A stretch of 64,000 bases of DNA from Raillietiella orientalis (taxonomy: Eukaryota), in assembly GCA_036172245.1 (NCBI GenBank), contig JAYWIR010000043.1, forward strand, positions 62,001-126,000, given 5' to 3'. A model generated the notes under the pieces. That model worked only from the letters and a program-made list of their open reading frames with translations, was not told where the DNA came from and made no database searches. Position numbers and translations under genes: made by a program. Every line of letters begins with the position of its first letter. The first letter of the stretch is position 1. Shown here piece by piece: positions 12,001 through 61,916 of the stretch.

Positions 12001-13200
12001 TCGCGTCGTACCTACTGTGCTCTGGCAGGAAGGTCAGAAGATGCGGCCATCTCCTTGGGCGCATGGAAGCCCTATTGAGAGACAAGGGCTGGATGGTCTG
12101 CAGCCCCGCAAACTTCTCCGCCTGGCTGGAGGAATCCGTTGCGACGTGGGCCAAGCTGAACCTCCAGACTTCCCCGGACTGGAACCGCCTGCGATTCGGC
12201 CCCAACGCCTGCTGCACACTGCGGACTACTCTGGAGTGTCCCGTCAGGAGCACGTAGGCGGAGACTTCCCCTCTAGCCTCGACCCTGCCCTTCCTACGAA
12301 GAGCTTTAACCAGTGGCCGCAAGCCGAAGTGGCAAGTCTCCTGCCGAATCGCAGGCAAGGTAAAGAAGATGAGCGGTTGAACCCTGGGATAACTGGTAGA
12401 TGCCACGACCCCGAGTGCCCTCCCGCGTGGACTTCGTCTCTCGGGCGAGGTGCTCGGCATCCCGACGGATGACCTGAAGTGGCCCTTAATACTAATCGGA
12501 TCCAGACGTCTTCCCTTGAAGTGGCAAGAGTCGGCGCTGCTGCTGTTCCACTGGGGTCTACCTTGGAACGCGCGCTGCTTCCACTGGACGCGGGGAAGTG
12601 TAAGGCCTGAGTGTGCCAGGTGTGGGGAGCGGGAATCGCTTCCCCACCTGATCGTTGACTGTGCTGCCCTCCAACCCCTTTGGGAACGGTTCGGGACGAC
12701 CCTCGGGCTCCCAATTGGCAGCGCGCCCAGAGACGTTCTTCGGCCCCTCTTCGTGAGGGACGCCCTGCAGCCCGCCGCAGCCCTTGCAGCCCTCTGCTGC
12801 ATCCGGGGCATCGTGCCGGCCTGGAGCGACATTCGCGACGAACGAGTGGATGCCAACGCGAGGGATGTCATCCCATATGCGGTCTGCTCCATGCGGAGAG
12901 CTGCGAGATGGCCCCATATGGGAAGCATGAAGATGGACCTGGAGGGCATCCTGCAAAGGATGGGTTCTCCTCCCAGTGGATTGTGATCCCTTCCTCTTCC
13001 TCCAAACTCTTTTTTTGTTTTCCTTATCTTTATTGTTCTTTTTGTTTTGATCCCTATCACCCTCCACTGACGAGGAGTGTCACGCCGGGCTGCGTCCCGG
13101 CGTCCCGGCAGGTCCGGTGTTGTGTGGCCGTTTGTGAGGCCTCGTACCACGTTTATGCAGAGTTTTTTCAATAAACGCCCCGGGCGTACCCGGGTGACAA
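9011..13200 (+). mobile_element. Element C (family II): ORF1 3' end plus degenerate ORF2
   Basis: ORF1 ends ..ISQE* at 9391; ORF2 9391-12986 has stops and frameshifts; terminus at 13170-13196 followed by ACAA. Confidence 0.92.
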
Positions 13201-13290
13201 CTTCGAAGCCGCGGGGAAGCAGGTACAAGGGGAACCGGCAGCATAACTAGCGGACCGATCTTTTCAGATCGTCCCAGTCCAAGAGCGAGA
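13201..13290 (-). mobile_element. Fragment N: family I ORF2 linker remnant; host of C and D
   Basis: Reverse complement encodes DWDDLKRSVR..CCRFPLYLLPRGF. Confidence 0.8.
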
Positions 13291-13297
13291 GCTGACA

Positions 13298-18135: not shown

Positions 18136-18139
18136 CCAG

Positions 18140-20628: not shown

Positions 20629-22880
20629 TCTACCGTCCCCCTGCGATCCTTTCGATCTCCTGGGCGTTCTCCGCGGTGATCACGTGGATCTCCTGCAGGA
20701 GTGCCAGGTCGAAGTCACGCAGGGTGGCGGCCGTGCCCCGTCTGTTGCCGTCGTCGCGCAGCCCGTTGACGTTTCATCAGGCCACGCGTAATCGACGGCG
20801 ACAGGCGAGCCCAGGTGTTACTCCTGGGAAAGTGACAATGGGGCGCCCGCCACCTGGTCGGGCGGGACGGATGGAGGAATGGGATCACCGCGCACCGGTT
20901 CTCCCTCCTCCATGGGGGCCGATTCCTTGGCGGACCGCAACGGTTGAAGGGGGCGGGTTCCACGCACATGCTCCCCCTCTTCCATGGAAGCCGATTCGTC
21001 GGCTGCGCTGGACGGCAGGGGGGAGCGGTTGTCAGCTGTTTGCTCCTCCTCCTTTATGGCTATCTCCTGAGCAGGTTCCACCGTTGGGAGGGGACGTCAA
21101 TCACTCATCTTATCCCCCTCCTCCATGGGGGTCACCAGCTGCTTGGTAGCGGAGGTCTAGAAAATCCCTCCCTCCGTTCCCACGCTGCCGGCTTCCCCCT
21201 CGGTAGCTGGTGCGTCCCCCTCCTTCTTTGTCGGGATGCGTCTCTTTGGATTTTTGGACTTCCGTCCAGTCTTCTTCGGAGGCGCCTCCGCGGAGGAGGA
21301 CGCACTTCCGGCATCCGGTTCGTGGTCACCTGTCGTAGGTGCCTTGCTCACGGCCGGCCTTCGCAAGGCCTTTCGCGCGCCGTTCTCACGCTCCGCGAGT
21401 TCGACCGCGAGCTCTTCCGCCGCCTGTTGGTAGGCGGCGTCCTCGATTGCGGCAAGCGCGTCGCTCGGCTCCCCCTCTGTTTGCACAGAGGGTTCGCCTT
21501 TCTCGATCGCGGCTTCGGCGTCAACGAGGCGGGAGATATCTCCCCCGGTGGAGGTCTCGGGGATCTCCACGCGCTCCAACGCGACCGAACATTCGCGGAG
21601 CAAAGCGCGGCGTTGCCTTCTATTTAAAAAAGTTGTCGCGGGTTCCGCTGTCGGTTCTTCGGTTTTTCGGCTTTTTTTACTTTTCGGCTTCGCTGTCCGC
21701 CAGTTCTCGTTGTCACCCGCGTCGTCGGGAGTTTTCTCGACCGCCGTTTGCTGGAAGCATTCCGAATCTGGCTTTTTGCTTGGCCTTTCCTTTGCTTCTT
21801 TTGGCTTGCTTGTTTTCTCCAAGCGTTTCCCCTTACCTTTTTTGAAGGCAGAGGGCGCTGAAGGTTCCCGCTGTTGGCACACTTTTTGGAGGTGGCCCTT
21901 CTCTTTGCAGTGGAAACACTGGATGTGAGGGCACCGTTTTTTCAGGTGCCCTGTTGCATCACAGTGCCCACAGTACTTGGGCTTACCCACGTACCAGACG
22001 TCGACGACCTCGTTGCCGATGTCGAGTTCGTGGGGCAGCCCACCGTTTTCGCGGACGGTCACAGGCGCTGCAACCATGCCACTGAACAGTCTTCCGTATG
22101 TTTGGTAGACGTTGGGCTTGGTCCAGAGCGCGTGCACCGTACCATGTTTTCGCAACTCTTCCTGCACGCCAGCTTTTGTCATGCGCAGAGTTACACCGAT
22201 AAGGTGGGCAACAATGAAGCGGTCCTCCGTCAAAGGGAAGAACTTTTGGCCTTCCAGAGAGAAGGGAGTGTTCAGCAGGCGTTGAGCCAGACTTGCATTT
22301 TTGCAAGTCAGCTCCACCCGCTGGCCCCCAATCATCACGGAGAGACCTTCCAGGTCTCCCTCTATCACATCCAACTGCTGTAACTCTCTTTCAAAGTTAA
22401 GAGCGGGGTTTCCCACAAACAGATTTTCTACCTTGTAAATCAAGGACATCTTGTATCCTTGTGCAAGGTAGGCGCGCTTTTCTGCTGAGGCTACAGGAAA
22501 TGGCGCTGCAGCCACTGAGCTGCAGGTCTCCGTCGTTGCCGAGGAAGCATCCAAAGACGCGGTTAACACCTTTTTCAAGAAGGCGGTTGCGCTTTTTTCC
22601 AAGGCGGCGGTTGTCCTTTTTTTCAAGAGAAAGTTTGCTGCCTTTTCCACGAGGGCGGTTGCCCCCTTTTTCAAGGGGGCGTTTGCCCTCTTCTGCGTCA
22701 AAGCGGTTGCCCCCACCTCAATCGGTTGGGGAGAGGAACAATCCTCTCCACCGGCGACTTCCATCGCGGTGTCCTCAGGCATTTCTGCTATTGGACACCG
22801 CAGATGTTGCACACACAAACACTAACGGAAGGAAACGCTTTACAACAGGCTTAGAGGAGCGCGGAAAAAACACGTTTGCA
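20629..22880 (-). mobile_element. Element F (family II-like), 5' part: 5' UTR, ORF1 and start of ORF2
   Basis: ORF1 22818-21157, frameshifted into 21081-20818; knuckles CGHCDATGHLKKRC and CFHCKEKGHLQKVC; TAACA junction at 20816-20820; endonuclease N-terminus cut by E. Confidence 0.88.
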
Positions 22881-25217
22881 CGCCAAGTTGCTGGCTAAGT
22901 TTTGTTCAGAGCGCCTGGGACGTGTCGCCAACATCTTCATCAGCTCGGAAAAGACACATGCTGTTCTCAAGCGAAGTATGGAGGCAATTCTGTTCCACGC
23001 TTCCACATGGTTAGAGCTCCAACAAGGAAGGAGCATAATAAGCAACCGGAATTCCATGGCGTCCGTCGGTGGGGGACGGGATGGTCGGGAGCGGAGAGGA
23101 GCCCTCGCCGTCGCAGTCGATTTGCATAAAGCATCCGATTGCGTTGACCACGATCTCCTTTTAAAGCTTCTGGAACGCTTAAGCTTCCCGGTTTCTTTGC
23201 TGGTTTACCTGCGCTGCAGCTGGCGCTACGCGCTTATCAATGTCTTTTTAAGTGGATCCACCGTGTACGGCGTACCGGTGCGACAAGGCACACGGCAGGG
23301 AGACAGCCTCAACCCCTTGCTCTTGAGCGCCCATTTCGAATTGGTGCTGAGAGCGTACAGGAATACTCGGGCGCACCTGCCGTGCGATTGTCCCGGTACA
23401 CCTGCGGTTTCGGCGTACGCGGACGACATTCTGCTGCTGTCCACTCCGGCCTCGGTGGTCGAGGACTTCTTCGACCTGCTAAGTCGTGGAACAGGACTGA
23501 CGCAGAACAGGGAAAAGTCGTCCGTAATGCCAGTCAGAGCGGCGTGGGCAGAGCAGCAGGACTGGGTTCGTTTGGGAATCCCCACGGTCGGGTACTTCAA
23601 GTACCTTGGTGTGCCGTTAGGGGATTACTCCCCTGGGGAAGCGTGGTTTGGCTGCCTTCAGGAGGCTCAGGCTGCGATCGGCCCGTTCCAGGACGGCAGG
23701 TTCTTCCTGCATGAACGGGCTGCGGCGTGGAACGCGTTTGCGGCCCCCCTCCTTCGCCCCTTGCTTTTTGTTTGCCCCCCCTCAGCGGAGTCAAAGAAGA
23801 GGACGAAGGACCTCCTGAGGATCGCCCTTTGGGGCAGATGGAGGCCCCGAGTCCGTCTTTCGGACTTGTGCGCTCCTCGTCGGGATGGTGGTCTGGGCCT
23901 CCTGACGTTGGAGCGGCTGGAGCTACAGCTCCAGTTCCGAGTTGTTGCCTTCATGGCAGGAAATTGGTGCACCCCTTGGTGCCTCCCTGCACGTCTCCTC
24001 GTCGAGTGGGTCACCAGCAATGCGGGACTCTCGTCCTACTTTGCACTCCGAAGCCCCATCTGCCACTGCGGTCTTCAACTTCGGAGGGCGGCCAAGCTCG
24101 TGAAGAACAACTCGGCGCGGATCCTCGTACGCCCCGCGAACGGTCCTGCATGGCTACAGGAAACCGTGCGCACGTGGGCGATGATTCAGGAGCAGAGTCC
24201 GAAACACGAGCGAATAGCTCTGTCCGGGCCTCACGCCCACCGCACGCTCTGAGAAATCTTCCAGGATCCCCGAAGGAGAGCGTTGTCTCCAAGAACCTCC
24301 CTTACTGCGGTACTGCCTACCCTACGGGAACATCTGGGCAGCAACGTCGCGGCACAATGGGAGGTTACTGTCAAAATCGTCAGCAGGGCAAAGAAGATCG
24401 AAGACTAGAGATCAGGACAACTCACCAACGCTGCGACTCCGAGGACCACACCAAATGGACTCTTGCGCCGGGGAGAGCTACTGGATGTTCCAGAGGAACA
24501 TCTCAAGTGGCCCCCGGTGCTCATGGACTCGCGCACCCTCCCCATGAAGTGGCAACAGTCGGCACTGCTGGTGTTGCATTAAGGGCTTTCTTGCAACGCC
24601 CGCCGACACCACTGGACGCGGGGGGTGTCAACCCTAATTGTGCCAGGTGCGGGGAGAGGGAATACCTCCCCCACCTGTTAGTGGATTGTGTTGCCCTCCG
24701 TCCCTTGTGGGAACGCTTTGCCGCAGCCCTGGGGATCCCCGGAGGCAACCCCAGAGACGCTTTGCGCCCCCTCTTCGTCCGTGACGCCCTGCTTCCAGCG
24801 GCCTCCCTTGCAGCCCTGTCCTGCCTACGCGGGATCGTCGTGGCATGGAGCAAAGCGACGTGAGGATCCAGCGACAGGGATGCCAACGTGTATGCCGCCC
24901 GTTTCCTTAGGTTGGCGACGCGATGGCCCCATCTGGAACCACACAAGCAGAAACAGCTTGCCGGCATCCTCCAGAGGATGACGGACCCTCCCAGCAGACT
25001 GTGATCCCTTCCCGCTCCCTCCCTGATTTTTGTTTATTTTTTGTTTTCTTTTTGTTTCGTTCCCCCTCCCCTCTGTTGCCGACGTCGATCGCGGCGGTCT
25101 GCGCACCGGTAGCCCGGCAGGCTATATCTTTCCAGGGCATGGCTGGACTACTGGTCCAGTCACAGATTATATTGGTTTATTCGTGAGAATAAACGTCCCG
25201 GTGCTCCCGGGTTTCAA
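22880..25217 (+). mobile_element. Element G (family III), 3' part; near-identical to the 3' end of J
   Basis: RT ORF 22876-24252 with YADD; CCHC finger; terminus AATAAACGTCCCGGTGCTCCCGGGTTTCAA at 25188-25217. Confidence 0.9.
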
Positions 25218-25474
25218 GCGAGACTGCGGACGGTGACGCCTCTCAGGAATTCGCAAAGGTGCTCATTCGCATCTGAGAGTCCCGTCCTGTCCCCAGGCAG
25301 ACGCCACGCCTTAAATGGGGGGCCCTTGTCGCGCGGGCACACCTCGAATATCAACCGGAAATGGTCAGACAGCTCCGACGCAACTTTCCCCCGTTAGCCG
25401 ACGCGTCAACACAAGTCGCCATCCAGGAAGAAGTGTTCGATGCTGCGGTCCATTCACCTCTCACCCGCGAACAA
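25218..25474 (-). mobile_element. Fragment U: family II (C-like) endonuclease C-terminus and linker; host of G
   Basis: Reverse complement matches C at about 9935-10190 (SDHFR..EHLCEFLRGVTVRSL). Confidence 0.8.
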
Positions 25475-25479
25475 GATTA

Positions 25480-27592: not shown

Positions 27593-27912
27593 TCTCCCCA
27601 CACAAGTAGTCTACGATGTTTGGGCACCACTTTTGGATGTGCCCGACCTCATCGCAGCAATTGCAATACCGTGGCTTACCCGCATACCAGAGGTCTACTG
27701 GTTCTCCCGCGACCTCAAGTTTGTGGGGAAGCTTGCGCCCATAGCTGTAGGTCTTGTGGAAGGACTTGCCTCCCTCACAACTACATCCATCGTGGTGTCC
27801 TCTGGCACGGCTGCTATCGGACACCGACGACCCACGCTTTACACCTGAGTACACTAAAATCTCCGGTTGCTTCCCAGACAAGCTCTGGCGGAGCCACCAA
27901 GAAACACGTCCA
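27593..27912 (-). mobile_element. Fragment S: internally deleted family II 5' end and ORF1 knuckle region
   Basis: Reverse complement gives LPHKLEVAGEPVDLWYAGKPRYCNCC..; ORF1 start resembles 39170-39250; 5' motif at 27902-27909. Confidence 0.78.
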
Positions 27913-30806
27913 CCCACACCGACTTTCGGCGATGGCTTGAGGAACGACCGGAACTATCTCCAGGCCCGGAGTTTCTCCAACATTGCCGACTTCAGTCGCC
28001 TGACTGAGTTCGAGGGTGGAGCTGAGAGGCACGCCTGGCAATCCGGGTCTGCCTGCTTACTGGACGAAGAAGGCCAGGAGCACTCTTCTCCAGCGCAGGT
28101 TTGCCGCATTTTGCGGGATTTGTACTCCTCTCTCTACGCCAAGAGACCACCAGAGCGCCCTGTTGTGCAGCGTCTGCAGCCAGAGGGTGCTTTCGCTTCA
28201 AGGGAGGACGAAGGTCACACCTTCCAACTGGAATTTACGATGGGGGAGATTGTTTCCATCATCAAGAATCTAAAAAAGAACGAAGCATCATTGGAAGTCG
28301 GCCTGATAGCTGAATTCTACCAACACTTTGCGGCAGAGTTGGCTTCCATGGTGCTCAATTTATGTTTGCTGATCCGTTAACGCGGCGATGTCCCCAACTC
28401 GTTCCAAGCAGCTAGAGTACGTCTCCTTCCTAAGGGAGGAGACTTGCGCAACGTTGGCAACTGGCGTCCCATCACTGTGGTCAATGTGGACGCAAAGATG
28501 CTTGCCAAACTCTGTGCTGAGCATTTGAGACGGGTGTCGGAATCCGTGGTCAGTCCGGAACAGACTTACGCTGTTCCCCGACGAACCTTGGAGGCCAACC
28601 TGTTCCTCGCAAGCACCTTTTGGCAGTTAAAACAGCGCAAGGCTCAGCAAGGTCTGGAGAGTTTTGGACTCTTCAATGACCGAAGGGAGGGAAGCCGGGG
28701 GAATGATGCGGCGCCCGAAGCCCTTGCGGTCGCAGTCCATTTGCGTAAAGCTTTCGAATGCGTCGACCAGGGGCTCCTCCTGGAGCTCCTGGAACGCTTG
28801 GGATTTCCGACCTTCTTCCTGGCGTACCTGCGCTCTTGCTGGCGCTTCAAGCCAATTACCATTAATTTCAGCGGCCGGCACGTGTACGGAGTGCCGGTTT
28901 CTCGCGTCATCCAGCAGGGTAACAGCCTGTGCCCCCTGCTCTTCAGCATCTACCTTGGTTTGGTGCTGAGAGCATACAGAGAGACCTTGGCAACCCAGCC
29001 GAGCTCATGTCTTGGCACGCCTGCCGTGTCAGCCTATGCCGACGACCTTTTGCATCTGCTTCCCGAGTCCACCCCGGCATCGGCGCTCGAAGATTTCTTT
29101 GAGTTGCTGAACCGTGGGACGGGCTTCGAGGTAAACAGGGCGACGTCGTCAATCGTTTCTCCGAAATCCTCGCAAGCAGGATGGTCGGACTGGATCCTCT
29201 TGGGGATCCCCACGGGCAAATACATCAACTTCCTTGGCGTTCCGTTGGGGGACTTCTGCTCTGCAGAAGCCTGGTCCGACCGTTTACAAAAGGTGGAGCT
29301 GGCGATCGGCCCGTTCCGGAACGGCAAGTTTCATTTGCAGGAACGGGCCACGGTATGGAACGCTTTTGCGGCCCCCTCCTTCGCCCTCTACTTTTTTTGT
29401 GCCCTATCCCGTACCAAATTAGGACCCGGACTAGGGGCCTTATACGGAAAGTCCTCTGGGGCAAGCGGAGGCCTCGCGTCCGGCTCAAAGACTTGTGCGC
29501 TCCACGCAGGGACGGTGGACTTGGTCTCCTGACGTTGGAGCGCATGGAGCGACAGCTCCAATTCAGAAAACTTGCTCTTGTGGCAAAGTCTTGGACAGCA
29601 CCCTGGTGTGCACCGGCAAGACTCCTTGCTCACAGGGCAACCTGTTGCTTCGGATTGACTTCAATCCTGGTAGCCAACGAACGCAGCCTTAACCACTACG
29701 GCTTTCAGCTGCGGGAATTGGTTGCCCCGTTGTGAGACAATCCGTGGATCTCCTGCAACCCTGCGGACTGGACTACTTGCTCCAGGAATCCGTTTCCGTA
29801 TGGGCTAAAATCAACGACACCAGCAAGGAGGACTTCTCTTGCCTCCGTAGAGGCAGGTACGCTGGTCAGCCACTGCAGCAGGCAACGTGGGAAGCGGCCT
29901 GCCTCATCGGAGGCAGGAAAAAATTACTGAAGGCGTGGACGTCCCGGGAACTAGCGGACGCTACTACCCCGAGTGTGCCGCCGAACGGAATTGTACGCTG
30001 GGGCGCGCTGCTCAGCATACCTCCGGAGGAGGTGAAGTGGCCCCAGCGTCTTGGGTCAACGGTACCCTTCCCCTGCAGTGGCAGGAGACGGCGTTGCTTC
30101 TGCTCTTCTGGGGCTTTTAAGCAGAGCACGCCTGTCTCACTGGACATCAAGGAGTGTGGATGCTAGTTGTGCAGAGTGCGGGAAAAGAGAAATTTTCTGT
30201 TACTTAATCATAGAATGCGTTGCCCTTCTCGAGATGTGGAACAGACTCTCGTCGATGCTGAACATTCCGGTTGGCGACCCAAAACATCTATTCAGACGCC
30301 TTCTGATGCGAGACGGCTTGCCAGCCTCCGGATGCGTAGCAGTGCTCTGCTGCATACGCGGTATCCTGGATAAGTGGACCGCGTCAAGGAGAGGAAGAAT
30401 CAGTCGAAGAGCCATCCACTGGGCAGCGATCTCTTTGGAGAAAGCCTGTTGTTGACGCCGACTTAATATACATTTGCCGGCATTTGTTCGCATCCGAAAC
30501 CGGATGCAAAGGCCTCCTCACGGCGCACCGTGATTCCCTCCCTCCCTCCCCATCCCCATAAAACATTGCCGTCTACACGTTATTCTTTGTTTCTTTGTTT
30601 TATTTTTTATTTTACCCGCCCCGGCGCTAGTAAGAAGGACCATATCGGCCTCCGGGTCGGTAAGGACAAGTGCAACGACACTACGATAAACTTCTGAATG
30701 TCCTAAAGAGGAAAATTAACCTTGTTTAAAAATTAAGACCTTATTATGAAATTTTTGTATTCTCAAAAATTTAAATAATAAAGGTCCCGGCTTACCCTGG
30801 TGAAAA
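27913..30806 (+). mobile_element. Element P (family IV): degenerate ORF2 from the linker through the 3' end
   Basis: FGDG..RN, WRPITVVN, YADD, CAECGKREIFCYLIIEC; terminus AATAAAGGTCCCGGCTTACCCTGGTG at 30777-30802. Confidence 0.88.
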
Positions 30807-30996: not shown

Positions 30997-31021
30997 AACG
31001 TCCCGGCGTACCCGGGTGGAA
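30997..31021 (+). repeat. Orphan 3'-terminal hairpin whose element body has been deleted
   Basis: AACGTCCCGGCGTACCCGGGTG followed by GAA, with no 3' UTR upstream. Confidence 0.75.
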
Positions 31022-31597
31022 GCTCTGAAGCAGCGCGGAAGCTGGTGCAAGGGAAACCGGCAGCAAAACTCGCGGACCGATTTTTTCAGATCGCCCCAGT
31101 CAGAGAGGTCACTCATGAAGAAGCCGCGGAGGTACTGGAGAAAATGCTCCGCCACCTCCGAATGACTTAGCTAGTCTGCCATCATCCTCCAACACAGTTT
31201 GGAGGCCCCTTGCCTGGAGGGAGCAGTTCGAACTCGAGCCTGTTGTGGTCTGAAAGTAAGAGACGCACCCTTGCTGAGCGAAACGAGGCAGGGACATTGC
31301 CCGTCTCTCGCATCAGCGCATGAAGCCTCACCACCAGAGGAATGAGTTCCGCCGCGAAGCACTGGAAGAACTCCGCAGGCAGACCATTTTCACATAGCAG
31401 CTTGTGCTGATCGAAGTCCGCTAAAGCGAAAGACACTTCTTCCGCCATGAAGGGCAAGTCAAGAGTGGCTCGTACCTCCTCGTCGACCGCCGGGGAATCC
31501 GCCGGCAGAAGCAGCTCCGAGAGACTGCGTTCCGTCGGCTCCCTAGCATACATCGAGGAGTAGTAGCTCTTTAGGAGGCGGCGAACTCCGGCCCCGC
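31022..31597 (-). mobile_element. Two fused family I ORF2 fragments (R region)
   Basis: 31597-31254 encodes YYSS..FRSARVRLL, joined out of order to LSDHNRLEFELL..LPRCF at 31253-31022. Confidence 0.8.
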
Positions 31598-33056: not shown

Positions 33057-33310
33057 AACTCCGGCCGCGCTCAAGCACTTCATGCCTTGGTCGTCGAGCA
33101 GAGAAGCCGCTCCTGACTGCCAGACCTCGCGCTCGTCCTTGGCCTTGTACTCTGTAAGGAACCGGACGTCCGTGCTTCGAGAGAATTGGCGGGACTGCAG
33201 AAACTCTGCTGTTGGCCACGCCATCTTCCAAGCCACGAAGAAGCAGGCGCAAAAGGAACCGGCTGCAGAACTCGCGGACCGATGTTTTCAGATCGTTCCA
33301 GTCCACGAGC
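33057..33310 (-). mobile_element. Continuation of host R on the other side of Q
   Basis: Reverse complement gives DWNDLKTSVREFC..WQSGAASLLDDQG. Confidence 0.8.
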
Positions 33311-33319
33311 GAGAGCGGA

Positions 33320-44800: not shown

Positions 44801-45444
44801 TCCTGAAGCTCCAAATAAACGCGCGGAGGTGCTCCGCCGCGTCGGGAAACTTCTGCCAGTCCCCTGGCAGACGCCACGCTGACGAGGGGGGGCCCTTGTC
44901 GCGCGGACGCACTTCGAACATGATCCGACCATGGTCCGACAGCTCGGACGGTACCTTGCCGCGCCTGCCCACCCGAGAGCATAGGTGCTGATCAAGGTAC
45001 ACGTGATCGATGCTGCTTTCCATGGCTGTGTCCCCAACCAACAAGTTGCGCGTGTTCATTTGTGCGCACAACTCGTTGACGCGGTCGTTCAGTGTATCCG
45101 GCACACCTGAAAGCAGGCGCAGGTTGAAATCACCAGCGATGAGGTGCGCTTTGCGAACTCCTGCATCGGTCAGCCAATCGCGTCTCAGGGCAAGGTAGAA
45201 TTCCCTTCTTGCCTTCGCCCTCAACGCGTTATTTCCGCTAGGAGCGTATAGGTTGGTGACGACCAGGTCGATAGAGTCGGACCAGCTGAGAGTCAGCTGA
45301 CCGATGCGACCTGCGTCATCGAACCGAACGGCCTTTATTGCGGTCTCGATGGCTGGCCGAAGCAGGAAGGCGACACCGCTTGATTTCGCGGTGCCGCAAC
45401 GCCACAACAGCCGCCCACCCGAGATCCGTTCGATCTCCCGGGCT
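41801..45444 (-). mobile_element. Element J, 3' part (family III)
   Basis: ORF2 pieces ~45432-44691, 44648-44139 and 44129-42156; terminus at 41804-41831; 16-bp TSD ACGCTCCGGAATCTCC at 41785-41800 and 53298-53313. Confidence 0.93.
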
Positions 45445-45561
45445 CGTACAGTGCAGACGTGTTTCCGCGTCTTTCCGCGCCAACGATCGGGCAACTTTGT
45501 GCCTGCGTTTTTGCTCGCACTTGTGTGTTCCTGTGCAATCTGCCAAGTAGCATAGTGCAGC

Positions 45562-47464: not shown

Positions 47465-50400
47465 ATGAGGGCAATCGCGTCTTCTCGTCGTGTTGCCGTA
47501 ACGTCTTGGAACGTCAACGGGCTCCAACACGAGGAGAAAAGGCGACTAGTGGCTGACGCTCTGCGCGCCTTCGACTTGACGCTCCTGCAGGAGATTCACA
47601 GCATCTCCGGAGAGCAGGCTGCCGAAATCGAACGGCGCGCGGGCGGAACGCTACTTTATAGGTGCGGCGTTGCACGTACGTGCGGCGTCGCTTTCTTCGT
47701 GCGAGGAACTTTGGCGGGAGCGGTGCGCAGCGTTCGTTTCGACACGGAAGGCCGAGTGGGACAGCTTGTACTCAAGTGGTCCGACTCGATCGACCTTGTC
47801 GTAACCAACGTGTACGCGCCGAGCGGTGCTGGACGATAGGCCGAAAGGATTGAGTTCTTCGGTACCCTTCAAGGCCAGTGGCTCACTCGATCTCACCCTA
47901 CTGTGGCCCATCTCATTGCGGGGGACTTTAACGTCCACCTGCTGTCCGAGAATAGATCCCACAAAAGGGAAAAGTTGCTAGCGGAAGAGATGTGCGCGTC
48001 CGTGCACGCGTGCAACTTGTTCGCTAGCGACCCTGTTATGGCAGCAACGCCGGACCACGTAGACCTTGATGAACACTTGCTCTGTCGAGTGGGTCGGAGA
48101 GGTCCCGTGCCGTCCGTGCTTTCAGACCACAACAGGCTCGAGTTCGAGTTGCTCCCGCCAGGCAAGGGGCCTCCAAACTGTTTTTGGAGGATGCCGGCAG
48201 ACTGGCTAAGCCACTCGGAGGCGGCTGAGCATCTTCGCCAGTACCTCCTCGGCGTTGCCATAAGTGAGCTCGAGGACTGGGACGATCTGAAAAGATCGGT
48301 CCGCGAGTTCTGCTGCCGGTTTCCCTTGCACCAGCTTCCGCGCGGCTTCGGAGAGGGCGTAGCCAACAGCAGAGATTTTCTGCAGGCCCGCTCCTTTTCC
48401 AGGCGCGCGGACGTTGGTCGATTATCCGAGTACAAGGCCAAGGCCGAGCGCCAGGTCTGGCAGTCAGGGGCGACAGTTCTGCTCGACGACCAGGACCAGG
48501 AATGCTCGGCTCCAGCCGACGTGCGACGGATAGTCAGGCGCTATTACTCTTCTCTGTATGCAGAGGCACCGACGGAACGCAGCCTCTCCCGGCTGCTTCT
48601 GCCGATTGATGCACCTGTTGTAGACGAGGAGGAACGCGCGCGTCTTGATGAGCCCTTCACGGCAGAGGAAATTTCCTCGGCCATCTCGGGACTCAAGAGA
48701 CGAAAAGCGCCAGGCGAAGATGGGCTCCCCGCGGAATTCTTTCAGTGTTTTGCGGCGGAGCTCATCCCTCTGGTGCTCCAGCTCTCGTCGCTGATGCGAG
48801 ACTCGCGCGATGTCCCCGCCTCGTTTCGCTCAGCGAAGGTGCGTCTACTGCCGAAAGGCGGAGATTTGCGCCAACTGAACAACTGGCGTCCGATCACATT
48901 AGTGAATTCGGACGTCAAGTTGTTCTCGAAACTTTGGGTGGCGCGGATGGGTAGGATCGCGGAATCCTTGGTAAGTCCGGAGCAGACGTACGCTGTTCCT
49001 GGGCGGTCCATGGACGCGAATCTCTTGTTCATCCGCACATGGCTGCAATTGCAGCATCGTGTGGCGGTGGATCGTCGTGCGGAAGCGACGCCTTCGATCT
49101 CTCACCGACGGAGGCGCGGGACGCAAAGGGAGACACCGGGAGCCTTGGCGTTTGCAGTCGATCTGCACAAAGCTTTCGATTGCGTGAACCAAAAGCTTCT
49201 TCTTGAGCTTTTGGAACGTCTGGGTCTTCCGGCATCCCTGATGGCGTACTTGCGCTCCTGCTGGCGCCACGCGATTACATCCATTGTTTTCAGTGGCTGT
49301 CGCGTGTACGGCGTGCCGGTACGACGAGGAATTAGGCAGGGTGACAGCTTAAGCCCGCTGCTCTTCAGCATCTATTTCGAATTGGTGCTGGAGGCTTACA
49401 GGCTGACGCTAGCCAACCTGCCGAGCTCCTGTCCAGGTACGCCCGCCGTGGCAGCCTATGCCGACGACCTGCTTCTCCTGTTGCCCATGTCCACCCCGAC
49501 AGCGTCGCTTGAAGATTTCTTTGAGTTGATCCGTCGTGGTGCGGGCGTGAGCGTTAACAGGAGTAAGTGTATGGTTGTTCCGGTTGGTGCGACGTGGGAG
49601 GGGCAGTCCGACTGGATCGACCTGGGGATCCCCCCGGGCAGGTACCTCAGGTACCTTGGCGTGCCGTTGGGCGACTTCTGCGTCTCAGAAGCGTGGTCGG
49701 ACTGCCTTCGGAAGGCAGAGCGTGCACTTAGCCCGTTTTCAGGAGGCGAGTTCGTCTTGCCGGAACGGGCCTGCATCTGGAACACCTTCGTTGCCCCCCT
49801 CCTCCGCCCCCTGTTTTTTGTTTGTCCACCCCCCCAGGAAGTCAAAGTCTGGGCGCAGCGCCTTCTACGCAGAGCGTTGTGGGGCGCTGCAAGATCCCGT
49901 GTTAGACTTAAAGACTTGGTGGCGCCGCGTCAGGATGCCGGCTTGGGCATCCTCGACTTAAACAGCATCGAACTGCAGGTGCAGTTTCGCATGCTGCGGC
50001 TCTGTGCCAAGCTGTGGTGTACGCCGTGGTGCTTACCCGCACGCCTTATACTGAGGCGCTGCACGGGAAGCGAGGGACTGCTTTCGTTGCTACCCCACTT
50101 TCGGCACACCAGAATAGGGTTTGGCTTCCCGCTGAGGCAGCTTTCCTCACTGCTGGAAGCCCAAAGCTGGATCTCCTGCCGCCCCATGAACATTAATGCA
50201 TGGCGGCAGGAATCTTTTTCATCGTGGGCAGCTTCCGAAGGAACGCGCCCGGAAGATCTTCGACGCCCTCGACTTCTCCTCAGTCATCAAATGGACGAAG
50301 TCATGCAGGACAAGAAGTTGTCGGATCGTCTGGCCGCCACACCACTCGCCGTAGCGCTGTCTGCCCTCAGGGCAAGCAACGACGGTTGCCTACCGGCGGA

Positions 50401-51393: not shown

Positions 51394-53297
51394 ATCTCCC
51401 GGGCTTGATCTGCGGAGATCACGTGGATCTCCTGCAGCAGCACCAGGTCGAAGGATGCCAGGGTGGCGGCCACGTCACGCCTCTTGCCGTCGTCGCTTAG
51501 CCCGTTCACGTTCCAACATGCGATCAGAAGACGACGGCGAGAGGCGATTCCCGGCATTATGGCTGGGAAAGTGGCGTCGAGGCACCTGCCGCGGGGCAGG
51601 TGTAAAAAAGGTCCATCGGTACGAGGACCATCGGAACGAGGACGGAGGCCCCATTAGGAGCCTGGGGTACCTGTTCGGCCTCCATCCTCACCATCCCCTC
51701 CGTGTCCGAGCGTGGAATTCTCTCGGGCGACGGGTCCCGGGAGTTTCCCACGCTCATGGCACCCTCGCTACCGGAAGCCATCTCTTCCCCTTCGACGGGG
51801 GATACGAGCTTCCTTGGCTTTGTGGACTTACGTCCAGCCTTCTTGCGGGGTGCCGCGGAGATGGATGCTGTGTTTCCTGCCTTCACCTCGGGGTCGGAAG
51901 TGGCCGACTCCTGAGGGGAAGCCGGACGCCTGACGGCCTTCTTGCCAGCCTTGGGGGCAACAGGCTGCTGCGAGGCAGCCAGCTCCTCCGCGTCGCGCTC
52001 GAAGGCGAAGTCATCAAGCGTGAGCTCGATGACGGACGCCGCCGACTCGCTCCCCTCCTTGTTGACTTTGTCAACGGAGGGTTGAGCAGGGGCAGCAGCG
52101 AGTTCTTTAGCGCCGCATTCGTCGATGGCGGGAATCCGCTCTACGACGACGCAGCAGCTTTTAATTTTATCGCGGCGCAGAGCGGTTTCGCTTCGTTTCG
52201 CCACGTTCTTTCCCTTCTCATGGGAGTTTTTCTTGGGGTCGACCTTCTGCCACCCTGGCTCTTGACCCTCGCTCTCGACCTTTTTGGCGTTTTTCGCCGA
52301 AGTTTCGGGGCTGGACTTCGCCTTGGTGGCGGAGGTGACCTCCTTAGCAGCAGCACGAGCTGCCAGCTTCTTTCTCTTTTTTGCCGCGCACTTTCTCGCG
52401 TTTTTCGCGGACACGACGCGGACTGTGTTTTGTGGGCACACCAGACGGGTGTGCCCCGCTTGTTTGCATTGCTGGCACTGCACGCTCTTACACTTCATTT
52501 TAAGGTGACCAAAGCTGCTGCAGCAGCCGCAAAACTTGGGTTTCCCCACGTACCACACGTCAACGGATTCACCGTTGACGGTGAGTTTGTGGGGAACCTC
52601 ACATCCCTCGCGAACCGTCACTCGCGCTGCACCCAGGCCGCCAAGCAACCCGTCGTAATCGACATAACGAGTAGGCTTTCCCCACAGCGCGTGGATAGTT
52701 GCGAATTTTTCCAATTCGTTCCGGACGGCCTCCTTCGTCATCCGGAACGTGATACCGGTCAGGTGAATGATCACCGACCGGTCTTCAGTTATTGGGAGAA
52801 GCCTCCGGCTGCCCATACTTACGGGGGTTCGCAGAAGTCTTTGCGCAAGAGTTGCCTCCTTGCAGATAACTTCCACAAAGTGACCCCCGCTTCTGACGGA
52901 CATAGCCAGAAGCTCCTCTTTCTGTACGCCGAGAACGCGCATCGCCCGTGAGAAGGCGCGCGCGTTCGCGGGAGAATATAGACCGCCTACCTTACATAGA
53001 AGGGGTGGGTTATACCCCTCCTCCAGGAAAGCGCGCATTTCCGCCATAGCCGCTGGCGTAGGTGCCGCAGCCACGGCGTTCCAAGCCCTGGGTAGGGCCG
53101 GGGGCGCATCCGTGCTGGCGGGAGCCTCCACTGATGCGGGAGCCCTCACCTCCATCTGCTCCGGGGGCAATGAGGTCATCGTCGCAGGATCCTCACCGGT
53201 GGTGGTATCAGGCATTTCTGCCTAATCCTCCACCCACACCACACAAAAGCACCAACGGAAATGGAACTCAGGAGCAACGAAAAGACACGTCCGCTCG
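51394..53297 (-). mobile_element. Element J, 5' part
   Basis: Endonuclease N-terminus ..DQAREI continues as ERISGGR at 45432; 5' motif at 53281-53290. Confidence 0.93.
51557..53215 (-). CDS. Intact ORF1 of J (552 aa)
   Basis: Open from ATG to stop; knuckles CGCCSSFGHLKMKC and CQQCKQAGHTRLVC; TAATG overlap at 51555-51559. Confidence 0.9.
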   Translation of the reverse strand: MPDTTTGEDPATMTSLPPEQMEVRAPASVEAPASTDAPPALPRAWNAVAAAPTPAAMAEMRAFLEEGYNPPLLCKVGGLYSPANARAFSRAMRVLGVQKEELLAMSVRSGGHFVEVICKEATLAQRLLRTPVSMGSRRLLPITEDRSVIIHLTGITFRMTKEAVRNELEKFATIHALWGKPTRYVDYDGLLGGLGAARVTVREGCEVPHKLTVNGESVDVWYVGKPKFCGCCSSFGHLKMKCKSVQCQQCKQAGHTRLVCPQNTVRVVSAKNARKCAAKKRKKLAARAAAKEVTSATKAKSSPETSAKNAKKVESEGQEPGWQKVDPKKNSHEKGKNVAKRSETALRRDKIKSCCVVVERIPAIDECGAKELAAAPAQPSVDKVNKEGSESAASVIELTLDDFAFERDAEELAASQQPVAPKAGKKAVRRPASPQESATSDPEVKAGNTASISAAPRKKAGRKSTKPRKLVSPVEGEEMASGSEGAMSVGNSRDPSPERIPRSDTEGMVRMEAEQVPQAPNGASVLVPMVLVPMDLFYTCPAAGASTPLSQP

Positions 53298-54223
53298 ACG
53301 CTCCGGAATCTCCTGGACTGGGACCTTTTTAAGGAATCGGTCCGCGAGTTCTCTGAGCAGTTCCCTCTGGATCGCCTGCCCCCCGGATTCGGCGAGGGTG
53401 CTCGCAACCATCGAGCCTATTTACAGACCCGTCGTTACGAGAGAACCCCTAATTTTCGTCGCTTGGCCGAGTACCGCGCTCAAGCCGAACGCCAAGCCTA
53501 GCAATCCAGGTCGGCAACTTGCTGGACGACCAGGGCCGGGAATGTTGGACCCCGGCGTCAGTACGGCATCTCGTGAGAAGATTTTATTCATGTCGCTACG
53601 CAAGGACGCCTCCGGACCAAGATGCCTCTCGGCGCTTGTTCCCGGATGGTGCCCCTGCAATAGGGGAAGAGGAGTCGGTAAGCCTCGACGAGCCTTTCAC
53701 TACCGGAGAAAATCTCGCCGGTATCAAAAGCCTCAAGATACGTAAAGGCGTCAGGGGAGGACGGCTTGCCCGCGGAGTTCTCTCAGTGCTTCGCGGAAGA
53801 GCTGCCACAACTGCTGCTCGTGTTGACAAGGCTGATCCGAGGCAATAGCGATGTTCCCGCTTCGTTTCGGTCAGAAAGAGTGAGGCTCCTTCCGAAAGGG
53901 GGAGACCTCAGGAAATTGCACAACTGGAGTCCGATCACAATCGTAAAAACGGACGCCAAGTTGCTAGCGGGGCTATGGGCGTCGGGTTTGTGACAGGTGG
54001 CAGAGTCCATAATTAGCACGGAGCAGACCTATGCTGCTCCCGGGCGAACTATGGACGCAAGGCTCTTCTTCGCAAGCACGTGGATGCACCGGCAAAGGAG
54101 AGAAAAGAAAGGGAAAGGGAAAATCGGCAACCCCACATTGGGGCTGTTAGCGGTTCTGGGAAGGGACCCCGGGGCTGGGAAAAGAGCCCTAGCGATCGCA
54201 GTCGATCTCCATAAGGCGTTCGA
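53298..54223 (+). mobile_element. Element M part 2: ORF2 linker to DLHKAF
   Basis: Resumes exactly at the TSD of J and ends at the TSD of L; similar to B at about 5985-6910. Confidence 0.9.
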
Positions 54224-57200
54224 TTTTCACCCGGATTTCGCCGGGGCGTTTATTGTAAAATAAACTTTTACCAAGACGTGCGGTGGCTGGAGCATTGCTC
54301 CAGCCACGCACGAACAAACACAGAGCCTGCCGGGTCACCGGTTCGCAGACCGGTACGGTTTACCACGGCAGCAGGGGGAAAAGGGAAAAACAAAAAAAAC
54401 AAAACAAAAAAAAAAAGAAAAGTTTTGAGGGTAAGGGAAGGGATCACAGTTGCTGGTGGGGCCGTTGCATCCTTTGCAGGATGCCGGCAAGCTCCATCTG
54501 TATTCCTGGATTTAGGTGGGGCCATCGGATCGCCCTTCTCAGAAACTAAGAGGCTGGCTGCATAGCACCCTGGTCGTGTGGTCCTCCCGTAGCCTTGCTC
54601 CAGGCGACGACGATTTCGCGGAGGCAGCACAGAGCTGCTAACGAGGCCGCTAGTCGAAGGGCGTCGGCAACGAAGAGGGCTTTCCGTGCGTCCCTAATGT
54701 TGCTGCAGGGGATTCCGATGGCCGCGGCAAAGCGAAACCAAAGGGGCCGAAGGGCAACACAATCCACTAGCAGGTGGGGGCGGGAATCCCGTTTCCCACA
54801 CTTGACGCAATTGTGGTCCACCGCTCCCCAGGTGCAGTGGTGTCGGCGGGCGTTGAAGGGGAGTCCCCAGTGCTGCAACAGGAGAGCCGACTCCTGCCAT
54901 TTTAAGGAAAGGGCGGAAGTGTTCATGAGCACCGGGGGCCACTTCAGATGTTCAATGGGAACATCGAGCAGAGCACCCCAGCGCAGAAGTCCATTGGGAG
55001 GCGTACTCGGGGTCGCAGCGTCTGTTAACTGGCCCGTCTTCCACTCTCCTATCTTCTTCTCCTTTCCGGAGATTGTTACTGTAACCACTCACTTCCTTGC
55101 AACATTGCTGCCCAGATCTTCCATCAGGGAGGGAAGCGCAGCAACGAGGGGGGTTCTTCCTGCCCACGCTCCCTTCTTTGGATCCTCCAGGATCTCGCAG
55201 AGCGTGCAAATTCTGTAACCCCCAAACAGGAACCTTCGTTCCTGTTGGGAGCGTTGCATGCCGAACTGTCCCCACGTTCGAACGGTTTCCTGCAACCAGG
55301 CACTACCGTTCAAAGGGCGACAGGTGAGCAATCCTGGGTTTTTCCTATACAGCGCAGCCACCCTCCGTAGCTGGAGTCCGCATCGGTTGACGCAGCGACG
55401 GAGTGCAAGAAACGACGTCAGTCCCGTCTTGCCGGTGGCTTGCTAGAGAAGGAGACGTGCAGGGACGCACCAACAGGTGCACCACAACTCTGGAACGAGT
55501 GCGGACAATCGGAACTGGAGCTAAAGCTCCAGCCGCTCCAACGTCAGGAGGCCCAGACCACCATCCCGACGAGGAGCGCACAAGTCCTTTAAGCGCACTC
55601 GGGCCCTCCCGTTGCCCCAGAGGGCGATACGGAGGAGGTCCTTTGTCCGCTTTTTAATTCTCTCTGTGGGGGGGCAAACAAAAAGCAAGGTGCGGAGGAG
55701 AGGAGCCGCGAACGTGTTCCAAACCGCGGCCCGTTCAGGCAGGAAAAACCTGCCGCAAGGAACGGGCCGATCGCCGTCTCTACTTTTTGGAGGCAGCCGG
55801 ACCACGCTACCGAAGGGGAGTAGTCCAACAACGGCACACCAAGGTACTTGAAGCATCTCGCCGTGGGGATCCTTAGACAGACCCAGTCCTGCTGCCCTGC
55901 CCACGCCGTACCAACTGGCATCTCAGACGACTTAGCCCTGTTCACCGTAAGTCCGGTTCCCGATGCAGCAGGTCCAAGAACTCCTCGACCGCCGAAGCCG
56001 GGGTGGACATAGGGAGCAGCAGCAGAAAATCGTCCGCGTATGCTGAAACGACCGATGTACCGGCACAGTCGTGCGGCAGGTGCGCCAGAGTTCCCCTGTA
56101 CTCTCTCAGTACCAATTCAAAGTAGGTACTGAAGAGCAAGGGGATCAGGCTGTCTCCCTGCCGGATCCCACGCCGCACCGGCACGCCGTGCACGGTCTGC
56201 CCGCTAAAAGTATCATTGATGAGCGCGTCGCGCCAGCAGGAGCGCAGATAGGCCACTAATAATGCCGGGCAGCCCAAGCGTTCCAGAAGCTCCAGAAGGA
56301 GATTCTGGTCGACGCAATCGAATGCTTTTCGCAAGTCGATTGCGACCGCAAGGGCTCCCATTCACACCCGACCATCCAACCCCTTGCCGGCGCACGCACC
56401 GGAATTCCAACTGCGTACCAAGCTCCTTTCATGTTGGAGCTCTAGCCAGGTGGAAGCGAGGAAAAGGTTCGCCTTCATGCTTCGCCCGGGAACAGCATAT
56501 GTCTGTTCCGGGCTGATGATTATGTTGGCAACTTGTCCCAGACGCTCTGTTCAAACCTTAAACAGCAACTTGATGTCCGCATTCACTATTGTGATGGGAC
56601 TTCAGTTGTTCATGCTCCTCAGATCTCCTTCCTTAGGGAGGAGCCGCACCTTTGCCGAACGAAACGAGGCAAGAACGTCACCTGTTTCGCGTATCAGCAA
56701 GGTGAGATGCTGTACCAGGGGAGTAAGCTCAGTCGCGAAAGTTTGATAAAACTCCGCGGGCAGGCCGTCCTCCCCTGAAGCCTTTCGCCTCTTGAGCTTC
56801 CCGATGGCCGAGAGGATCTCGTCCATCGTGAAAGGCTCGTGGAGGGTCTTTCTCTGCTACTCTTCGATCGCTGGAGCGCCTTTGGGAAGCAGGAATCGTG
56901 AGAAGTTCGTCTCCGGAGGTGCCCTGGTATACAGGGAGGAGTAGTAACTCCTCAGCAGGCCGCGGATTTGGACAGGTGCCGAGTGCTCCTGGCCCTGATC
57001 GTCAGTAAGCTGGCCGATCCCTACTGCCAGGCTTGCTTCTCGGCTCCCGCTTTGTATTCCGCCAGCCTGCGGATGTCGGGGGTCCTGGCATAAGGACGGG
57101 CCCGCAGGTAGGCTCGTTCTTTACGGACCCCGGTCCCATAACCGGTAAGTAAGCGGTGCAGAGGGAACTGGTCGCAGAACTCCTGGACCGACCGCTTGAA

Positions 57201-59791: not shown

Positions 59792-61897
59792 CACAAGGCG
59801 TTCGACTGTGTGGACCAGGAACTTTTCTTGGAGCGATTGGGTCGCATAGGCTTCATACCCTGCTTGATATCCTTCCTGCGCTCTGGCTGGCGGAATGCGA
59901 TGATTACCGTCTCTTTCAGCGGTCACAAGGTGTATGGCGTGCCGGTGCGGCGGGGCATAATGCAGGGAGATAGCGTCAGCCCCCTGCTCTTTAGCACCTA
60001 CTTTGTGTGGGTGCTGAGAGCGTACAGTGTGACTTTAACCCCCTTGCCGTGCTCGTGCCCCCTTACGTCCGCCGTAAGTGTTTATGCCGACGATCTTCTG
60101 CTCCTGTTACATATGTCCCCCCCCTTGAAGGCGGTCGGAGATTTCTTCGACCTGCTCAACCGCGGGACCGGACTGCAGGTGAACAGGGCGAAGTCGTCGG
60201 TGGTGCCAGTTGGTGCGACGTGGGCAGGGCAGCAGGAATGGGTTCGTTTGGGGATCCCAATCTCGAGATGCATCAAGTAACTTGGTGTGCCGTTGGGGGA
60301 CTTCTCCCTTGCGAAAGCGTGGTCCACTTGCCTCCAAAAGTCCTGACGGCGATCGGCCCGTTCCTGGAAGGCAAGTTTCACTTGCCAGAACGGGCCGCGG
60401 TTTTGAACGCCTTTGCGGCCTTCATCCTCCGCTTATTGCTTTTTGCTTTCCCCGCCCCAGGAGTTGTTAACAAGAGGACGAGGGTCCTCCTCCGCATCTC
60501 CTTTGGGGCAAGGGGAGGCCCCGAGTCCCTTTGAAGGCCCTTTGCGCTCCTCGTCGGGACAGCGGGCTCAGCCTTCTGACGCTGGAGCGCGTGGAGAAAC
60601 AGCTGCGATGGCGTACCCTCGCCATCGCAGCGAAGATGTGGAGCACCCCGTGGTGCATTCCGGCTCGTCTACTCGCCAGTCCTTTGTTCCGGTGGAGGGA
60701 CTCGCGTCTTTTTTTTTGAACCTAGGCCGGAAGATCGGAAGATGCGGCCTACAGCTGGGGCGCATGGCATCGTTGGCCATGGAGAACAGCTGGATGGTTT
60801 GCTGCCCCACCAACTCTTCCGCCTGGCTGGAGGAGTACATTGGAACGTGCGCTGTGGTGAACCGGAGAAGCCACGTAACGTAGAATCGTCTCTGATGCAG
60901 CCCCTACGCCCGCTGCACTCTGAAAAATCTCTTGAAGAATCCAGCTAGAAGCACGTGGGCAAAGACAACCTGCCTGGCTACGGCGCTGCCCTTCCTGAGG
61001 AGGGCGCTTTACAGCAGTCAAACGCCAAGGTGGCAAGTCTCCTGCTGCATCGAGAAACATGAGAAGAGAATGAGCGTCAGGACCATGGGTCAACTGGTGT
61101 TCGCCACGACCCCGTGCGTCCAGCCGCGAGGTCTAAGATACAGCGAGCTGCTGGCCATCCCTACGGATGTGCTGAAGTGGCCCCCGCTTCTTCTGGAATC
61201 CAGGATACTGCCCCTTAAGTGGAAAGAGTCGGCGTTGCTCTTGTTGCATTGAGGTTTACCCTGCAACGCACGCCGCTCCCACTGGACAAGAGGAGTTGTG
61301 GATCCTGCGTGGGTCAGGTGAGGAGAGCGGGAATCGCTCTCTCACCGTATTGTGGACTGTGCTGCCCTTCGCTCCCTTTGGGAACGGTTCGGGACGACCC
61401 TCGGTCTCCCTGCGGGCAGTTCCCCTAGAGACGTTCTTCGGCCCCTCTTCGTGAAGGACTCCCTGCAGCCAGTCGCAGCCCTTGCCGCCTTGTGCTGCGA
61501 CCGAGGCATGGTGGCGGCATGGAGCGACACCAAGAAGGAAGGAGTGGGTCAACACGCGAGGGATGTTATCCCATATGCCCAACGCTTCTTGCGGAGAGCT
61601 GCTGGATGGCCCCAACTGGGGAATATACAGATGGACCTCAAGGGCTTCCTTCAACGGATGGGCCCTCCTCTCAGCGAATTGTGATCCCTTCTCTGCCCTT
61701 CAACCTCTTTTGTTTTTTTGTGGTTTTGCTTTTTGGTTTTTGTTTTTTCCCCATCCCCTCTTGCTGCAGGGGAGTGTCACGCCAAAATGCGTTCCGGCGT
61801 CTTGGTAGGTCCCGTGCATAAAGCCGTAAGCGGGCCTGGTACCGCGTTTGTAGAGTTTTTTTTAATAATTAACGCCCCGGGCGTACCCAAGTGGCAA
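59792..61897 (+). mobile_element. Element M part 3: RT through the 3' terminus
   Basis: Resumes HKAFDCVDQ; YADD; terminus AATTAACGCCCCGGGCGTACCCAAGTG at 61867-61893 followed by GCAA. Confidence 0.9.
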
Positions 61898-61916
61898 TTC
61901 CAATTCCCCTCTGTGG

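Follow-up and report, generated by a model that had tools for sequence, protein, structure and literature searches.

A 64-kb window of the Raillietiella orientalis genome (GenBank assembly GCA_036172245.1, contig JAYWIR010000043.1, positions 62,001 to 126,000 of the forward strand; coordinates below count from the first base of this window) was resolved by self-comparison and tblastn into about 25 element pieces and consists only of fragments from retrotransposons that lack long terminal repeats (non-LTR retrotransposons). The window has a G+C content of 56-62% and is a nest of diverged long interspersed nuclear elements (LINEs) of the apurinic/apyrimidinic endonuclease (APE) type, with putative zinc knuckles in the first open reading frame (ORF1) and APE, reverse transcriptase (RT) and zinc finger in the second (ORF2). 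The subject of the analysis is one position in ORF2, within the codons for the residues G-F-G-E-G (the GFG position) about 60-70 amino acids (aa) past the APE domain, at which ends of one lineage, the family II (L-type) LINEs, repeatedly meet other LINEs in antisense orientation. The element letters are those of the present analysis and may differ from those of a preliminary description of the same DNA; all counts and probabilities were determined within this one window.

Regarding the protein domains, RVT_1 (PF00078) was found in seven of the 12 long ORFs scanned, with E-values down to 2e-20, and zf-RVT in two of the 12. The APE endonuclease domain (PF03372) is N-terminal in ORF2 of C (9e-10), D (2.6e-13, full length) and L (1.9e-5). 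For ORF1, PF00098 scored 19.0 and 16.6 bits, both under the cut-off of 20.8, and two C-X2-C-X4-H-X4-C motifs are visible in the translations. A tree of the RT segments gave a clade of I, A and E, then S, then a broad group of C, K, V, (B,M) and (P,N,(D,(Q,Q'))). All lineages have a 3' terminus in common, which consists of AATAAA, a CCCGG(G)..CC(C)GGG hairpin, TG and 3-5 further nucleotides (nt), with no poly(A). The window holds 14 such termini (13 recovered by pattern search, plus an orphan of 25 nt). The hairpin was predicted in three of the four termini folded, with z-scores of -0.5 to -1.7, which are indistinguishable from shuffles; no covariation is countable among the window termini, as the stem is invariant C/G.

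The GFG site is intact in element I (Table 1), whose copy at 45440-51410 served as the reference (I-ref); base 2914 of I-ref is window position 48353. Three 3' termini stand exactly at the equivalent position. At 13200/13201, C ends in ..CCCGGGTGACAA and is followed by CTTCGAAGCCGCGG of the I-family piece G1, which is 89.5% identical to I over 86 nt. At 31022/31023, the orphan terminus ends in ..CCCGGGTGGAAG and is followed by CTCTGAAGCAGCGCGG of G2, which is 87.7% identical to I over 235 nt. G1 and G2 both stop at I-ref 2914, after GGC TTC GRA G, and the breaks coincide to the nucleotide (I, ..cgcggcttcggag^agggcg; G1, ..cgcggcttcgaag^ttgtcaccc; G2, ..cgctgcttcagag^cttccaccc; the caret marks the break). 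These two junctions are therefore located at the GFG codons as given in the preliminary description. The third terminus, that of M, is real at 61897/8 (after ..GTGGCAA), but its flank is not the host ORF2 that had been stated; M is followed by 12 GFG-like bases, to which the 5' UTR and ORF1 of T, a further full-length element, are directly attached. In antisense, this 12-mer (GGGGAATTGGAA) matches the GFG codons of K (GGGGATTTCGAG) at 9 of 12 bases. The earlier statement that three 3' junctions agree in hosts of different families thus holds to the nucleotide for C and the orphan, whereas the flanks of these two are both I-family and that of M is a 12-nt remnant.

An assignment of the orphan to S, as its 3' end, was considered and rejected, because S has its own terminus at 30806. 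The orphan is joined, in inverted orientation, to the ORF1 fragment U2 about 10 nt ahead of the ATG of U2, which is 86% identical to U1 over 59 nt. This arrangement may derive from inversion or twin priming; a twin-priming inversion agrees with the orientation of the orphan and U2, but requires the inversion of nearly the whole element.

Together with two 5' junctions, five junctions are located at the GFG position, three 3' ones that are exact (C/G1, orphan/G2 and M/12-mer) and two 5' ones that lie 7-12 nt upstream (K/L and S/U1). K, a case not listed in the preliminary description, is broken within GGA TTT CGA G^TA GGG (..GGATTTCGAG^TAGGG) and adjoins the 5' end of L; the 12-mer that separates them represents a target-site duplication or, alternatively, the beginning of L. 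S reads through GAC TTT CGG CG^A TGG (..GACTTTCGGCG^ATGG, 27921-27935), where its ORF2 homology begins. In both K and S the homology starts at G147/F148 of the GFG motif, and each meets an antisense L-type 5' end. The earlier statement on S holds in part: S is the host and not the guest, and its neighbor is the minus-strand 5' end of U1 rather than the ~18 nt of host P that had been assumed. In U1, an internal deletion of ORF1 (27593-27800) joins codon ~20 to the zinc-knuckle region. Many copies in the window are 5'-truncated, and the full-length 5' ends have the motif GGACGTGYTTTYC in common, which was seen at 39097, 61922, 27911(-), 53292(-), 59779(-) and 45456, in several lineages and with 0-26 extra bases ahead of it. 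Its role might be that of an internal promoter or of an initiator.

The elements at the junctions were compared by codon position (1/2/3) and by flank. K and S differ by 0.26/0.24/0.44, i.e., mainly at third positions, which indicates functional host lineages that diverged under selection and not decayed duplicates. The second family II copy (T, 61899-62488) is 91% identical to L (39074-39663), with differences mostly at third codon positions (0.05/0.06/0.14), an excess that marks the two as separate retro-copies. The differences between D and D' (0.08/0.09/0.11) look neutral, so that G1 with D (13201-14544) and G3 with D' (33225-34564) appear to represent a DNA-level duplicate (87%). The junction between G3 and D' is shared with G1 and D, yet G3 shows no break at the site; C therefore entered the G1 copy after that duplication. 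As G3 continues through the site, 13201-13286 was also ruled out as the 5' untranslated region (UTR) of D itself. G2 is uninterrupted through the D junction (I-ref 2829), which places it outside the duplicate and makes the orphan junction separate from that of C, and the tails of C and the orphan differ at three of four bases (ACAA vs GAAG). By these comparisons, the separate events number at least four, and their four host copies belong to three lineages (I-like twice, K and S).

A triple coincidence among 14 randomly placed junctions has a probability of 2.5e-6 over 11,000 states (position by strand), of 7.5e-4 with 700 allowed sites and of 8.6e-3 with 200. The string CTTCRRAG occurs 19 times in the window: two copies are at junctions (both GFG-located), one is GFG-located in I and has no insertion, and the 16 copies outside the GFG motif are all without insertion. 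The GFG site is used by three of the five termini with the family II hairpin GCGTACCCGGGTG (B, C, P, M and the orphan) and by none of the nine others (Fisher p=0.027); the APE region common to C and L is 81.9% identical. Regarding orientation, 12 of the 14 3' junctions are antisense to the host (binomial p=0.013), the exceptions being A/B and B/C, which are same-strand head-to-tail joins. Within the window, recurrence, restriction and independence support what had been proposed earlier, namely that family II prefers one position in the ORF2 linker of LINEs from other families.

Table 1. Elements, fragments and junction sequences at the GFG position and at the second recurrent site (the caret marks the break or nick-equivalent position).
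Feature	Position	Strand	Description
Intact site in element I	48340..48366	+	..CGCGGCTTCGGAG^AGGGCG; nick position 48353/48354
C	9018..13200	+	family II guest, 5'-truncated in ORF1 C-terminus; 3' terminus ..AATAAACGCCCCGGGCGTACCCGGGTGACAA
G1	13201..13286	-	I-family ORF2, I-ref 2829-2914; 3' end of C on one side, 5' end of D on the other
Orphan	30998..31022	+	25 nt of family-II-type 3' terminus (ACGTCCCGGCGTACCCGGGTGGAAG); no element body upstream
U2	30807-30997	-	ORF1 N-terminal fragment directly left of the orphan
G2	31023..31256	-	I-family ORF2, I-ref 2680-2914; no interruption at 2829
G3	33088..33310	-	I-family, I-ref 2829-3053; intact through the site (~33225); control for independence
K	36150..39072	-	host ORF2 from GFG site to own 3' terminus; sense ..GGATTTCGAG^TAGGGACC
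12-mer at K	39073..39084		CTCGAAATCCCC between K and L; antisense = GFG codons of K
S	27923..30806	+	host ORF2 from GFG codons (CTTTCGGCG^ATGG, nick-equivalent 27931/27932) to own 3' terminus
U1	27593..27922	-	L-type 5' UTR and partial ORF1; 5' end (GGACGTG motif 27905-27911) faces S
LM, all parts	39085-41801, 53293-54225, 59792-61897		full-length family II element
L	39085..41801	+	5' UTR, ORF1 and ORF2 start of LM; Q interrupts at 41801/41802
LM, middle part	53293..54225	+	ORF2 aa ~104-426; between QO (duplication ~16-20 nt) and N (~16 nt)
M	59792..61897	+	3' part of LM, terminus ..GGGCGTACCCAAGTGGCAA
12-mer at M	61898..61909		TTCCAATTCCCC, antisense GGGGAATTGGAA; GFG-like remnant between M and T
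T	61910..62488	+	second full-length family II copy, 5' UTR and beginning of ORF1
Q	41802..45446	-	3' terminus ..CCCGGGTTTCAA adjoins L at ..GGAATCTCCA (= B position ~6000)
Q'	22880..25217	+	second Q-type guest; 3' terminus adjoins L' at the position equivalent to that of Q
L' fragment	25218..25475	-	ORF2 aa ~21-122; host of Q'; 70-78% identical to L

At least four nested insertions in the window have target-site duplications of about 12-20 nt: element I (45447-51393, +) inside QO (41802-45446 and 51394-53292, -), with ATCTCCCGGGCT; QO inside LM, with ACGCTCCGGAATCTCC; N (54226-59791, -) inside LM, with CAYAAGGCGTTCGAYT; and S2 inside H, with CTCCGGCCSCGC. Ordinary target-primed reverse transcription (TPRT) therefore operates in this island, and when the nest is parsed as TPRT insertions, the M of the preliminary description turns out to be the 3' portion of LM, a single full-length element of family II. 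The 5' end of P (25481), which corresponds to B 6889, is 7 nt away from the point where N splits LM (59792/54225; duplication B 6896-6911) and may represent a further clustered breakpoint. E and I, both I-family guests, are antisense in the APE N-terminal region of the L/N-type hosts F and O (20628/20629 and 51393/51394), with insertion points about 22-28 nt apart in element coordinates (N-ref ~1960 vs 1938). In 1-20630, A, B, C, (G1)D and E follow one another head to tail on the same strand without spacers, the joins being A/B at ~5657, B/C at ~9015-9018 and D/E at 18137/18139 (from ORF2 aa 916 of D to aa 309 of E). Template jumps, sense-oriented nesting or deletions could account for this array. 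Beyond T, a run of 99 N (62845-62943) represents an assembly gap or a masked stretch.

The Q lineage appears to have a recurrent site of its own in ORF2, about 80 nt upstream of the GFG position. Q (41802/41801) and Q' (25217/25218) meet their hosts at the same nucleotide, at ..GGAATCTCCA^ and ..GCAGTCTCGC^, respectively, corresponding to ORF2 aa ~122. The two guests are 98-100% identical over the last 500 nt, to the last base, whereas the hosts L and L' diverge right past the junction; the 5' parts of Q and Q' differ by 0.16/0.11/0.27 at codon positions 1/2/3, a selection-type pattern. Some copies in the window are mosaics: the identity of Q and Q' is 74-87% in the 5' 600 nt and 98-100% in the last 500 nt, and P groups with N, Q and D in the RT segment and with M in the 3' half (85.6% identity to M overall). 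This suggests recombination between lineages, via RNA template switching or gene conversion.

The family II junctions are probably best explained, in our judgement, by antisense target-primed insertion at a preferred nick position in sibling LINEs. Family II elements of this island would integrate by ordinary TPRT but would strongly favor a single nick position in other LINE copies. We infer that the nick is made on the host coding strand within the G-F-G-E-G codons, GGN TTY GGN G^AG GG, which would place the guest in antisense relative to its host. Exactly at the nick, the guest would be joined by its 3' terminus, as at C/G1, orphan/G2 and M/12-mer, and its 5' end would be joined 7-12 nt upstream, as at K/L and S/U1, in the form of a short target-site duplication. 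A second hit at the surviving half-site beside K would then yield the order K - 12-mer - LM - 12-mer - T. The nick position might be selected by the endonuclease or ORF2p, through recognition of a motif that is kept because it codes for G-F-G-E-G, or by pairing of read-through guest RNA with homologous hosts; pairing of read-through target RNA is known for R1 and R2.

Several observations weigh against this explanation. Both halves of one host flank the guest in no GFG event, so that there is neither a filled/empty pair nor a clean duplication. The two 12-mers of LM are alike at 9 of 12 bases, which goes beyond the divergence predicted by the difference of about 5-8% between L and T, and on the guest side the orphan comprises 25 nt only, followed by the inverted ORF1 fragment U2 in place of a body. 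The site reads TTTCGAG^TAGGG in K and TTTCGGCG^ATGG in S, which differs in both cases from the CTTCGGAG^AGGG of the I type, so that a simple sequence recognition is not obvious. Of the 13 copies that carry the GFG region, nine (A, B, C, D, Q, I, LM, N and G3) show no break in it, two family-II-type termini (B and P) sit elsewhere, and the sample is one window with 4-5 events.

Three other explanations were considered. The recurrent position could be the 5' end of an RNA and not a DNA target, a proposal that we regard as unlikely: an antisense promoter in ORF2 would start transcripts at GFG, elements downstream (D' 86 nt and L-type 9-12 nt away) would be copied with a short 5' extension, and end-to-end template jumps would join the 3' terminus of the next RNA to the 5' end so extended. 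C/G1 with D and M/12-mer with T do have this structure, a 3' terminus followed by a full-length 5' end with an antisense-GFG leader, and A/B, B/C, C/G1-D and D/E make up a spacer-free head-to-tail array on one strand. L, T and U1 have a GFG-like 9-12-mer ahead of GGACGTG, the motif at which O begins directly, and the 9/12 match of the LM 12-mers suits inherited leaders better than a fresh target-site duplication. However, the endings of K and S, 3-kb hosts of different lineages, would be left unexplained and would need antisense RNAs that end at GFG; in G1 and G2 there is no promoter-like or conserved 5' motif past the antisense GFG position, and the neutral differences between D and D' suit a DNA duplicate equally well.

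It is judged very improbable that the coincidences were inherited, in that segmental duplication multiplied one or two old insertions and gene conversion or recombination among the copies came later. A composite junction is indeed duplicated in the window (13198-14544 vs 33222-34564, 87%), gene conversion could produce the patchy identity of Q and Q', and an early duplication would give values such as those of G1 and G2, which differ by about 10-12% each from I and by about 19% from each other, equally across codon positions. The preliminary description had named an old insertion, later duplicated, as the outcome that would contradict its proposal, and the codon-position tests, the intact G3 and the lack of D in G2 are evidence against it. 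K/S, L/T and the 5' parts of Q/Q' differ mainly at third codon positions, which strains common descent of the junctions; G3 is the sister of G1 by the shared D junction and yet intact at the site, Q and Q' are 98-100% identical to the last base while their hosts diverge immediately beyond, and the tails of C and the orphan have one base of four in common. It is likewise highly unlikely that family II follows a loose nick motif of short purine-rich ends (..GAAG^, ..GGAG^, ..GAGA^), with antisense hits surviving because they are tolerated in dead LINEs and GFG being the best-conserved instance, or that the site is a general breakage or recombination hot spot. In favor of a loose motif, the flanks of 11 of the 14 3' termini start with a pyrimidine-rich string of the CTTC/CTCT/TTCC/TCTCC/CTCC/TTTCC/TCCGG type, the target of B in ORF1 of C (CTTCCGGA^) is similar to the GFG site, and 12 of the 14 junctions are antisense (p=0.013). 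Against a loose motif, none of the 16 CTTCRRAG sites outside GFG (19 in total) carries an insertion, the triple coincidence has p=0.0086 even at 200 permitted sites, and the site is used by family-II-type termini only (3/5 vs 0/9). Q and N nick after pyrimidine-rich ends, and a general hot spot is not indicated.

Antisense insertion of family II at a preferred nick might be part of a wider pattern, although we consider this extension doubtful. Co-resident LINE lineages would form a guild, each with a nucleotide-precise antisense docking position in the 5' third of the ORF2 of the others (the GFGEG linker for family II, about 80 nt upstream for the Q type), chosen by homology, through pairing of read-through or element RNA, and not by endonuclease recognition alone. 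Such LINE-on-LINE parasitism would disable competitors and make a self-growing, gene-free, centromere-like niche.

The closest database relatives of the elements have at most 28% identity, the closest named one being a plant L1-type protein cluster (27%), and the protein atlas contained generic RT clusters only. A metagenome scan with the shared 3'-terminus pattern yielded a single match, by chance, inside a bacterial-looking coding contig. In the sequencing run X1, 0.66 of the sampled words of element I were present; contigs of X1 and of two further runs were mapped to 42001-62000 at 80% likeness, and 659 X1 contigs were placed.

LINE-only islands such as the Zepp clusters are thought to grow by new copies landing in old ones; a rule guiding the growth of Zepp-type islands was not found in the available portions of the literature on these clusters. 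The repeated hits by one lineage suggest that the elements use each other as safe landing sites. If the proposed preference is true, a conserved coding motif of sibling LINEs would offer a molecular handle on the landing rule, with a testable target for the APE endonuclease or ORF2p; it would explain gene-free, ever-growing islands and provide an example of retrotransposons inactivating each other.

In green algae, Zepp-like (ZeppL) clusters are GC-rich and built almost exclusively from LINEs that inserted into older copies and are frequently 5'-truncated (Craig et al. 2021, PMC8226300), and nested Zepp clusters are reported to occur once per chromosome with 61% GC (Blanc et al. 2012, PMC3446292). 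The L1-type Zepp/ZeppL clusters (Coccomyxa, Chlorella, Chlamydomonas) share with the present window the GC-rich nested island made up almost wholly of LINEs and the 5' truncation. The window differs in that several diverged lineages occur together, one of which uses the ORF2 linker of the others in antisense, at a single nucleotide position, and in that all 14 of 14 3' ends finish with the hairpin plus 3-5 nt rather than with the poly(A) tail that Zepp carries. Within the accessible portions of the literature on Zepp clusters, the original Zepp papers aside, no report of a nucleotide-precise site within Zepp was found, nor was one of a nucleotide-precise antisense site in the ORF2 of a sibling LINE in the portions of the literature searched, on which the original Zepp papers may bear.

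The Drosophila elements HeT-A, TART and TAHRE form telomeric arrays that are added to chromosome ends. They resemble the present elements in the head-to-tail arrays of several LINE lineages in a dedicated chromosomal niche, and differ in their addition to chromosome ends, with no internal coding position and no antisense nesting. For R2 and R1, work of the Eickbush and Fujiwara laboratories has described guidance of initiation by read-through target RNA and end-to-end jumps of the RT between templates. By analogy, such mechanisms could give precise 3' junctions at homologous targets as well as spacer-free joins (A/B, B/C, M/T); R2, unlike the APE LINEs described here, has a restriction-like endonuclease and a target in ribosomal DNA (rDNA).

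Target-specific APE LINEs include Tx1L (Tx1 clade) in the Tx1D transposon, R1 in 28S rDNA and TRAS/SART in telomeric repeats. The likeness to family II would lie in APE LINEs with one preferred position in a multicopy sequence and in head-to-tail neighbors produced by repeated hits; for Tx1L the target is itself a transposon, as it is a LINE here. In contrast to these systems, the preference of family II is partial (three of five family-II-type termini and two 5' junctions), and its target, a coding motif in sibling LINE lineages, tolerates differences in sequence (K, S and I-type). If the proposed preference is true, the coding sequence of other LINEs would be added to rDNA, snRNA genes, telomeres and DNA transposons among the specific targets of APE LINEs.

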